A DNA stretch of 64,000 nt. It comes from Eledone cirrhosa. Its lineage: Eukaryota. Below are positions 33,671-35,396 of this stretch, piece by piece. The notes under the pieces were generated by a model. It was not told the origin of the DNA. It did no database searches and worked only from the letters and a program-made list of their open reading frames with translations. Made by a program: the position numbers and the translations under genes. The stretch covers positions 25,420,001 through 25,484,000 of the forward strand of contig OZ024742.1 of NCBI GenBank assembly GCA_964016885.1, written 5' to 3'. Numbering within the stretch: position 1 is the first letter of the stretch; every line of letters begins with the position of its first letter.

Positions 33671-34221
33671 CACACACACACACACACACACACACACACA
33701 CACACACACACACACACACACACACACACACACACACACACACACACACACACACATATATATATATGTATATATATATATATATATATATATATATATA
33801 TATATATATATATATATATATATATAAACGGAAAAAATGAAACGAAATTTCATTTCCCACTCTTAGTACGGCTGTTACTTAAATATAAGTATGTACACGT
33901 ACATACATATATGTATACAGACGTACAGTAGTATGTATATATATATATACATACATGCATACATATATATATATATATGAACGTATGTATTCACCGAACA
34001 TTTATTATAATGCTCGGTGTGTTTGTAAACAAACATCCCGTATTAAGCCGTAGTGTCTAGCAACCAACGTTGCTCGTTTGTTCAACACTGACAAAGGAAC
34101 GCTGTACTAGTTTCAAGCTTATTAGCTATCGATTAACCCACTCGATATGCAAATTGGGCTTCTCAGCCGTTAATATGCATAAGGTAAGTATATACGTTCA
34201 ACAATATGGCAGGAAGGGATA

Positions 34222-34262
34222 CGTTGCTGACGATAGCTAATAAGCTTGAAACTAGTACAGCG
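34222..34262 (+). ncRNA. Minimal type I HHR
   Basis: cgttg-CTGACGA-tagctaataagctt-GAAA-ctag-TA-cagcg. Confidence 0.9.
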
Positions 34263-34643
34263 GTCCTTTGTCAGTGTTGAACAAACGAGCAACGATGGTT
34301 GCTAGACACTACGGCTTAATACGGAATGTTTGTTTACAAACACACCGAGCATTATAATAAATGTTCGGTGAATCCATACGTACATATATATATATATACA
34401 TGTGCATGTATATATATATACTTACTACTGTACGTCTGTATACATATATGTATGTACGTATACATACTTATATTTAAGTAACAGCCGTGCTAAGAGTGGG
34501 AAATGAAATTTCGTTTCATTTTTACCGTTTATCGTTTTCGGTGCACCCGGCCGATTAACCTACTCGATATGCAAATTGGGCTACTCAGCCGTTAATATGC
34601 ATAAGTTAAGTATATACGTTCAACAATCTGGCAGGAAGGTATA

Positions 34644-34684
34644 CGTTGCTGACGATAGCTAATAAGCTTGAAACTAGTACAGCG
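34644..34684 (+). ncRNA. Minimal type I HHR
   Basis: Same sequence as 34222-34262. Confidence 0.9.
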
Positions 34685-35065
34685 TTCCTTTGTCAGTGTT
34701 GAACAAATGAGAAACGATGGTTGCTAGACACTACGGCTTAATACGGGATGTTTCTTTACAAACACACAGAGCATTATAATAAATGTTCGGTGAATCCATA
34801 CGTACATATATATATATGTGTGCATGTATGTATATATATATACACACTACTGTACGTCTGTATACATATATGTATGTACGTATACATACTTATATTTAAG
34901 TAACAGCCGTGCTAAGAGTGGGAAATGAAATTTCGTTTCATTTTTACCGTTTATCGTTTTCGGTGCACCCGGCCGATTAACCTACTCGATATGCAAATTG
35001 GGCTACCCAGCCGTTAATATGCATAAGTTAAGTATATACGTTCAACAATCTGGCAGGAAGGTATA

Positions 35066-35106
35066 CGTTGCTGACGATAGCTAATAAGCTTGAAACTAGT
35101 ACAGCG
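35066..35106 (+). ncRNA. Minimal type I HHR
   Basis: Same sequence as 34222-34262. Confidence 0.9.
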
Positions 35107-35396
35107 TTCCTTTGTCAGTGTTGAACAAATGAGAAACGATGGTTGCTAGACACTACGGCTTAATACGGGATGTTTCTTTACAAACACACAGAGCATTATA
35201 ATAAATGTTCGGTGAATCCATACGTACATATATATATATGTGTGCATGTATGTATATATATATACACACTACTGTACGTCTGTATACATATATGCATGTA
35301 CGTGTACATACTTATATATATATATATATATATATATATATAGGGAAAAGAAATCTAAAATGCAACTGGACTCTTTTTAAGAATATTCATTTCATT

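Follow-up and report, generated by a model that had tools for sequence, protein, structure and literature searches.

Introduction

Animal non-LTR retrozymes are described as non-coding tandem repeats of low GC content, with units of 150-450 bp that each carry one type I hammerhead, arranged in anything from dimers to large arrays, in genomes where PLEs co-occur; tandem cDNA copied from a circle is the model proposed for them (PMC7229834; 10.64898/2026.07.22.740005), in the first of these accounts by rolling reverse transcription on the circular template. In Xenopus, 24 of 57 retrozyme families have Repbase homologues, 21 of those 22 elements being annotated as PLEs, and eight of nine retrozyme dimers gave no cleavage in vitro (10.64898/2026.07.22.740005). 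PLE insertions have a pattern of their own, in which an inverted, 5'-truncated copy is combined with a tail on one end only (PMC8557442, PMC3846280); the tail of the anole PLE, Poseidon, is as long as the spacing of two internal sites at which RT starts, and extension takes place on both target strands (PMC11167929). Insertions of EN+ PLEs lie in AT-rich or microsatellite targets, show palindromes at some junctions, have tails of 30-40 nt and carry a hammerhead of minimal form (PMC8557442, PMC3846280, PMC11167929). The hammerheads of newt and axolotl satellites, also found in tandem repeats, have a two-pair helix III with a palindromic loop and act as dimers (PMC7229834, PMC4209133). As far as the available portions of these reports go, both the movement of animal retrozymes and the origin of the inverted, one-tailed PLE insertions are called open in the literature.

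The insertion analysed here lies at 33824-35320 of the window (the whole 64,000-nt stretch of DNA under study) and belongs to subfamily A2 of a repeat family, A, which has a distant sister family, B, in the same genome. Family A shares with the animal non-LTR retrozymes the short non-coding tandem units, the low GC content, the type I hammerhead in each unit, the range from dimers to large arrays and the co-occurrence of PLEs. In their available parts, the retrozyme descriptions mention neither the head-to-head arms of A and B nor their pair of fixed internal 3' ends, their insertion into (TA)n or their clonal arrays with two arms, and, unlike the Xenopus families with Repbase homologues, A has no homologous autonomous pLTR that we could find. 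The inverted, 5'-truncated copy, the tail on one end, the two start sites, the AT-rich or microsatellite target and the palindromes at some junctions are all as in EN+ PLE insertions; A and B differ from these in having no ORF, a longer tail (56-59 nt in A, about 70 nt in B), arms that hold up to 20 identical units, and a helix I of 6 bp with a long extension in place of the minimal form. The two-pair helix III with its palindromic loop is that of the newt and axolotl satellites, and the A and B hammerheads are likewise predicted to cleave as dimers, whereas the U.U at 10.1-11.1 sets family A apart. By its sequence, family A thus has the characters of a non-LTR retrozyme with a predicted hammerhead and carries the PLE insertion signature, and it departs from the published description in the G10.1-C11.1 pair and in pLTR homology.

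Taken together, we consider family A to be, probably, a non-coding, high-copy hammerhead repeat of the animal non-LTR retrozyme kind that is likely copied by PLE machinery into (TA)n from a likely circular monomer RNA. The family joins both open questions in a testable system, with a short structured RNA, mapped start sites and very young clonal insertions, and the same genome supplies the sister family that defines the conserved helices, as well as intact candidate enzymes. A literature search of partial coverage found no publication that treats retrozymes of cephalopods or clonal retrozyme arrays with two arms. The wobble swap and the individual locus flagged in the earlier note are ordinary or due to chance; the footprints that the family's likely mobilisation has left are unusually clear.

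Anatomy of the insertion

The A2 element is a head-to-head insertion in (TA)n, composed of an inverted 308-bp arm and 2.8 direct units of 422 bp, and flanked by (CA)43(TA)35 on the left (33671-33826) and by (TA)15 on the right. The inverted arm (33824-34131, minus strand) covers unit positions 103 to 404, with the long ('tail') 3' end as its outer end; it differs from the family majority at one non-microsatellite site, and its hammerhead is interrupted at N7, within the core (unit position 103). The direct arm starts at unit position 2, makes two full turns and stops at 348. Its first unit (34130-34550, positions 2-422) has five private variants of its own and reads through the 56-nt 'tail' (34477-34532) that lies between the family's two 3' end sites, the short one at 348 and the long one at 404. 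The second (34551-34972) is a full 422 bp and contains an internal (TA)-like segment (34796-34898) that ends at the short 3' end site. The stretch that follows, 34899-35320, is a near-copy of 34477-34898, with four differences in 422 positions, and the short 3' end (position 345-348) passes into the right (TA)15 target at 35313-35342.

The array of about 2.8 units of 422 bp described in the earlier note was recovered (period 422, 2.8 copies at 34130-35317, beside the inverted arm at 33824-34131), but the units are not uniformly near-identical: units 1 and 2 differ at 11 of 244 non-microsatellite sites, and units 2 and 3 at 1 of 245. Since units 2 and 3 also have six variants in common, a local tandem duplication made unit 3. 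The near-identity of the window units was for this reason rejected as proof of a circle, and the insertion is too old to tell a circle from a linear multimer; the multimeric or circular template that had been proposed from this locus draws its support from other, young loci.

With a GC content of about 37%, the 422-bp unit falls within the non-LTR retrozyme range (150-450 bp, GC under 45-50%). It is non-coding, its only frames being those that cross microsatellites, and the whole stretch has no long ORF; an ORF with RT and GIY-YIG, absent from the A2 element, was found in a separate PLE family.

The window holds a second insertion of the family at 14791-16413, of subfamily A1 (485-bp unit), which has the same head-to-head layout, with the short end on the left and the long end on the right, and hammerheads at 15145 (minus strand), 15638 (plus strand) and 16123 (plus strand). 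A2 is, as had been noted, homologous to A1 and diverged from it, at about 74-75% BLAST identity.

Hammerhead structure and its conservation

Three type I hammerhead motifs lie on the plus strand of the direct arm, at 34221-34263, 34643-34685 and 35065-35107, with predicted cleavage after 34257, 34679 and 35101, respectively, following the GUA at unit position 129; the outermost stem I pair of the first is mismatched. With its extended stem I, the second reaches from 34616 to 34704, as judged from the fold and from pair counts (34608-34715 folds at -29.4 kcal/mol, z -2.9). The core, C3 U4 G5 A6 G8 A9, G12 A13 A14, A15.1-U16.1 and H17, is present in all three copies and, in an alignment of 14 copies from A and B, varies only at N7 and N17. 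Helix III is short and palindromic, and helices I and II have about 6 and 4 pairs. Position 10.1-11.1, where a G-C pair is described as highly conserved (PMC4209133), is U.U in all eight A rows, which thus lack the canonical pair, and G-C in all six B rows. Rfam gave no hammerhead match, either at the gathering score or among 105 matches at E<=5, and what matched the A unit was microsatellite-driven noise of miRNA type. A second ribozyme was looked for on the minus strand of the unit and not found.

The subfamily differences listed in the earlier note were all confirmed: stem I changes from ACGGTG/CATCGT in A1 to ACGTTG/CAGCGT in A2, N7 from T to C, and the loop from taacaa to taataa. Its further claim, that the catalytic positions stay fixed, is true of the 12 core positions in the three A2 hammerheads and fails in the A1 copy at 15638. 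In that copy (15638-15680), a change of G8 to A breaks a core position.

Of 314 sites compared between the majority sequences of A1 and A2, 53 differ; all of these lie among the 302 sites outside the core and none among the 12 core sites (p=0.10), while the wider stem region (positions 66-155) changed at 8 of 90 sites against 45 of 224 elsewhere (p=0.01). Core protection was not seen in single genomic copies, where private changes amount to 17/1,488 in the core and 456/36,569 elsewhere (p=0.81); the core formally varies as much as the flanks, an outcome that the earlier note had named as contradicting its inference. Equal rates are, however, what is expected of mutations that arise after insertion, so that core variation in single copies is the wrong test of selection. 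On one background, the swapped stem I pair was counted as U.G 4,828 times, G.U 1,052, U.U 171 and G.G 51; A-U was seen in two loci. The swap between G.U and U.G is by itself weak evidence of selection. The idea that U.U or G.G marks a distinct amplified lineage was not supported, the 25 inspected loci being on mixed backgrounds.

A consensus fold of five subfamily majorities reached -78.2, compared with -56.4+-5.4 for permutations, none of 200 being as stable. Compensatory pairs numbered 5 against 1.3 (1 of 200) and broken pairs 6 against 11.4; the covariation term taken alone was not above the null (-3.2 vs -3.4). Between A and B (14 copies), 6 of the 17 hammerhead pairs changed on both sides, and 92% of the cells in the alignment pair, compared with 33-51% when it is slid. 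Two elements that bear on a possible loop 1-loop 2 tertiary contact, a UA bulge in stem I, present in 13 of 14 rows, and the UAANAA loop II, are kept between the two families while the stems change. Two of five measures in the A/B pair shuffles were not above the null, and the shuffles overstate covariation, because the signal amounts in essence to a single contrast between A and B, with one further change within each family. On this comparative evidence, selection on the structure of the predicted hammerhead is supported, as had been proposed, although by way of the wider stem region, the whole-unit fold and family B and not by way of the wobble swap.

Size and subfamilies of the repeat family

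The genome searched, a single 3.0-Gb, microsatellite-rich animal assembly, contains 23,085 exact matches to a 34-nt hammerhead motif and none to the reversed control. Copies are dispersed and form arrays from dimers to long ones; large heterogeneous arrays are also present. Among 216 units from 86 loci, subfamilies A1 and A2 mark the two extremes of a gradation that mosaic units connect; units of more than one subfamily occur together in some insertions (L008, L006 and L028), and letters of both types are present in contigs from runs of two other organisms. Family B, with a unit of 467 bp, is homologous to A along the unit and agrees with it in ends and helices; of 7,700 motif matches, most were assigned to it, judging by 99 among the first 100.

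At L010:1-1266, immediately before an A2 array, lies a third tandem family with a period of 310 bp and a hammerhead motif of its own. In L002, L015-L017 and L020, a dispersed insertion has grown into a higher-order array in which two units alternate as ABAB, a stem II pair being broken in one of the two types. A dimeric circle was rejected as the origin of this array and expansion at the DNA level favoured, because the arm-restricted variants predate the alternation.

Insertion ends and target

Copies end at two sites, at 345-348 or 401-404 in A2 and at the homologous sites near 410 or 469 in A1. The 123 A loci yielded 70 head-to-head pairs, 40 with both ends classifiable and 30 without; the classifiable pairs were long+short in 36 cases, short-short in three and long-long in one. 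With a duplicated locus counted once, 35 of 39 were long+short (p=1.7e-7 against 50:50). The same combination was seen in 11 of 11 family B pairs (13 pairs, two of them unclassifiable) and in 13 of 13 young loci, giving 59 of 63 for all classifiable head-to-head loci. In the flanks of inspected loci, the target is AT-rich or microsatellite DNA, (TA)n, and PLE endonuclease fragments are present. The target duplication expected of a non-LTR retrozyme, longer than 4 bp where visible, is masked by (TA)n at the window locus and measures about 15 bp at the family B locus L288, which lies outside microsatellite DNA; there it overlaps both element ends (L288:420-445 and 4385-4400), which suggests homology-assisted priming.

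The end pattern of A and B matches the 'inverted copy plus one-sided tail' of PLEs and fits two internal RT starts with both strands extended. As the ends show dependence on PLE machinery, 'replicon', the word used in the earlier note, overstates what the element is.

Head-to-head junctions

The junction near 34130 does fall inside the hammerhead core, where it cuts N7, but the cgat microhomology once assigned to it does not hold: the letters shared by the two arms are CG (2 nt, 34130-34131), within an ATCGAT palindrome, and both arms, when read in sense, begin with 'cgat', which is not a 4-nt overlap. With 38 head-to-head loci placed in the frame of A2, the hammerhead (positions 93-135) contained 8 of 76 junction ends, with 7.7 expected (p=0.85), and the cleavage site 1 of 76, with 0.9 expected. 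The idea that cleavage places the junction in the hammerhead was rejected on these counts, which indicate that the position of the window junction is chance and that the cDNAs pass through the cleavage site.

The two arms of one insertion share 22 rare variants, compared with 1.5 in shuffled pairings (maximum 7 in 2,000), and such variants occur in 15 of 36 loci, from which it follows that both arms derive from one template or source; later conversion may be a source of arm-shared variants. A single cDNA folding back was disfavoured as the general source of the second arm, because neither arm is contained in the other in L110, L138, L165, L186 and L046. Some junctions (L004, L015, L042, L113, L130 and L132) are perfect fold-back palindromes of 16-50 nt, the usual overlaps being 0-7 nt.

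Young arrays and the template

Two young sub-lineages, with 630 and 188 motif matches, were sampled as 28 stretches drawn from the first 100 listed matches of each, together with two further loci, which gave 15 loci with full units in both arms. Young arms reach 20.7+7.4, 15.9+20 or more, and 10.2+7.7 units. In four of the 15 head-to-head loci, locus-private variants were present in all the units of both arms (7/7, 6/6, 16/16 and 6/6), and one more locus had a fixed haplotype nested with that of one of these four. Fourteen of the 15 had no substitution at intermediate frequency, with 24 singletons in 147 full units, and several were identical to the subfamily root. In 228 of 229 passes over the cleavage site, the length was unchanged; overlapping loci are partly included twice in this count. 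Heterogeneous young arrays were found in L130 and in the one-armed L286. In older A2 loci, arm-shared variants were confined to a subset of the units in 14 of 15 cases, several of these loci having been picked as recombinants, and post-insertion variants were restricted to one side of the junction, as with 218T in L015 and the six variants of the window insertion.

A parent array was searched for genome-wide for one haplotype, that of L265, in one assembly. One private variant of L265 has 13 genomic matches, eight in that insertion and five in lone units, with none in another array, and no exact parent unit of the haplotype (two changes) was found in the assembly searched. L304, a unit of a mixed satellite array, has both L265 private variants on a different background, perhaps through conversion or by chance.

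Private variants in every unit of both arms imply that a new mutation, after passing through a single unit, was copied many times over in the two arms simultaneously. The simplest explanation of these clonal two-armed arrays is likely rolling reverse transcription on a circular monomer. We lean, with somewhat better than even confidence, towards a more specific form of it, in which a PLE dimer performs two-armed rolling-circle reverse transcription on a circle of 0.42-0.47 kb, from two conserved starts, and lays down clonal head-to-head arrays of up to 36 or more units per event. On the preferred reading as a whole, tandem arrays would be transcribed, and hammerheads, probably paired through their palindromic helix III, would free monomers that a host ligase closes into circles. 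A dimer of the PLE RT/GIY-YIG protein would then bind the folded unit and nick both strands of (TA)n, so that each target strand primes a cDNA through a few bases of UUAU/AT homology, in one case at position 404 and in the other at about 348. Both cDNAs would be extended round one shared circle, over anything from 0.2 to more than 20 turns, and their two ends would be joined by 0-7 nt of microhomology or at an internal palindrome. The copies would afterwards decay neutrally, and some would expand by DNA-level duplication, as unit 3 of the window did. If this two-armed rolling-circle reading is true, the genome records circle-templated retrotransposition in an animal, the one-sided PLE tail is explained, and a covarying, multi-helix, enzyme-recruiting RNA is defined; the family also suggests that satellite arrays can be born in one step.

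The main alternative, which we hold to be rather unlikely, keeps the dependence on PLEs and takes an uncut linear multimer as template, with uniformity coming from homogenised source arrays or from fast DNA expansion after insertion. The main template of the anole PLE is uncut RNA, and mutation of its hammerhead left insertion unaffected, according to the available part of that report (PMC11167929). The variants that older loci share in subsets of units, the heterogeneous L130 and L286, the DNA-level duplication in the window insertion and the ABAB array at L002/L015 all agree with such a template. It would require, however, a source array of at least five identical units for each private haplotype, and none was seen among the 13 matches to the L265 variant; the residual variants of young arrays are singletons and not nested, and post-insertion variants in older loci are one-sided whereas the private variants of young ones fill both arms.

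Non-LTR RTs are capable of end-to-end template jumping. A cleaved linear monomer could on that account serve as template with no circle involved, the RT jumping repeatedly from the 5' end to the 3' end or to sister monomers, and this would explain the monomer bottleneck equally well; the lack of excess cDNA ends at the cleavage site (1 of 76, 0.9 expected) and of length scars there in 228 of 229 passes make it improbable in our view. Still less probable is a viroid-like replicon, in which the circle is also copied from RNA to RNA and yields private haplotypes, with integration as a side route. The L265 haplotype with no exact genomic parent would be accounted for in this way, and mussel retrozyme circles are called heterogeneous, at least in a section title (PMC7229834); against it, the parent may also be absent because only one haplotype is assembled or because it has been lost, no second ribozyme turned up on the minus strand of the unit, and several young loci are identical to the subfamily root. 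Lastly, a DNA-level satellite or extrachromosomal DNA circle with the hammerhead as a passive relic, although in keeping with the large heterogeneous arrays and with a core that decays like the rest of the unit in single copies, is for the most part refuted by the conservation of the ends (3' ends that are fixed and strand-specific, a (TA)n target, the end pattern of PLEs) and by RNA helices that covary across subfamilies and families, and we regard it as hardly credible.

Candidate helper elements

Under the preferred reading, PLE-dependent copying of a circular monomer, the helper of first choice among the candidates is a PLE family that is young and intact and shares target and end pattern with A, here called Neptune-like for its C-terminal endonuclease preceded by a Cys motif, and for those features alone. 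A first look gave 60,222 candidates, and 150 of these were scored; the family has three stop-free ORFs of 927-928 aa, and the 29 top-scoring copies show a mean divergence of 1.1%. The family inserts in (TA)n, with long+short ends in 5 of 5 cases. Its ORF had no matches in Pfam and PDB, and the nearest Atlas clusters carry GIY-YIG, RVT_1 or HTH_animal. Neither the terminal repeat of this family nor eight other endonuclease 3' regions are homologous to A, so that the Neptune-like partner is a candidate only. Apart from simple repeats, the A unit has nothing homologous in the 3' regions of the nine PLE endonuclease fragments tested, among which no autonomous partner with a matching terminal repeat (pLTR homology) was found, and no sense-strand ORF adjoining a unit was seen in the inspected loci.

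At L091:5380-5420, a Neptune-like terminal repeat contains a hammerhead variant in which U3 and A8 replace C3 and G8, keeping the 3-8 pair. A PLE fragment with inverted arms at L129:3273-6396 carries A units in antisense, the composite having apparently moved as one piece; it was rejected as the autonomous partner, the A units inside it being passengers.

Other elements in the window

Two GIY-YIG endonuclease remnants, from different PLE families, lie at 22003-22284 and 29643-30056, and LINE reverse transcriptase fragments, which we take to be RTE-like, at 3-1460 and 18781-20127. A separate repeat at 14400-14790 abuts the A1 insertion and also flanks L019, L035 and L063, its copy in L035 having a hammerhead-like motif inside. 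A further hammerhead-like motif (58407-58452) is located in a repeat that ends at (TA)n, with related motifs in L063 and L220. At 60887-61236, a palindromic head-to-head mini-element in (TA)n has one hammerhead-like motif per strand (61020 on the minus strand and 61171 on the plus strand), and motifs related to these occur in L041, L195 and L196.
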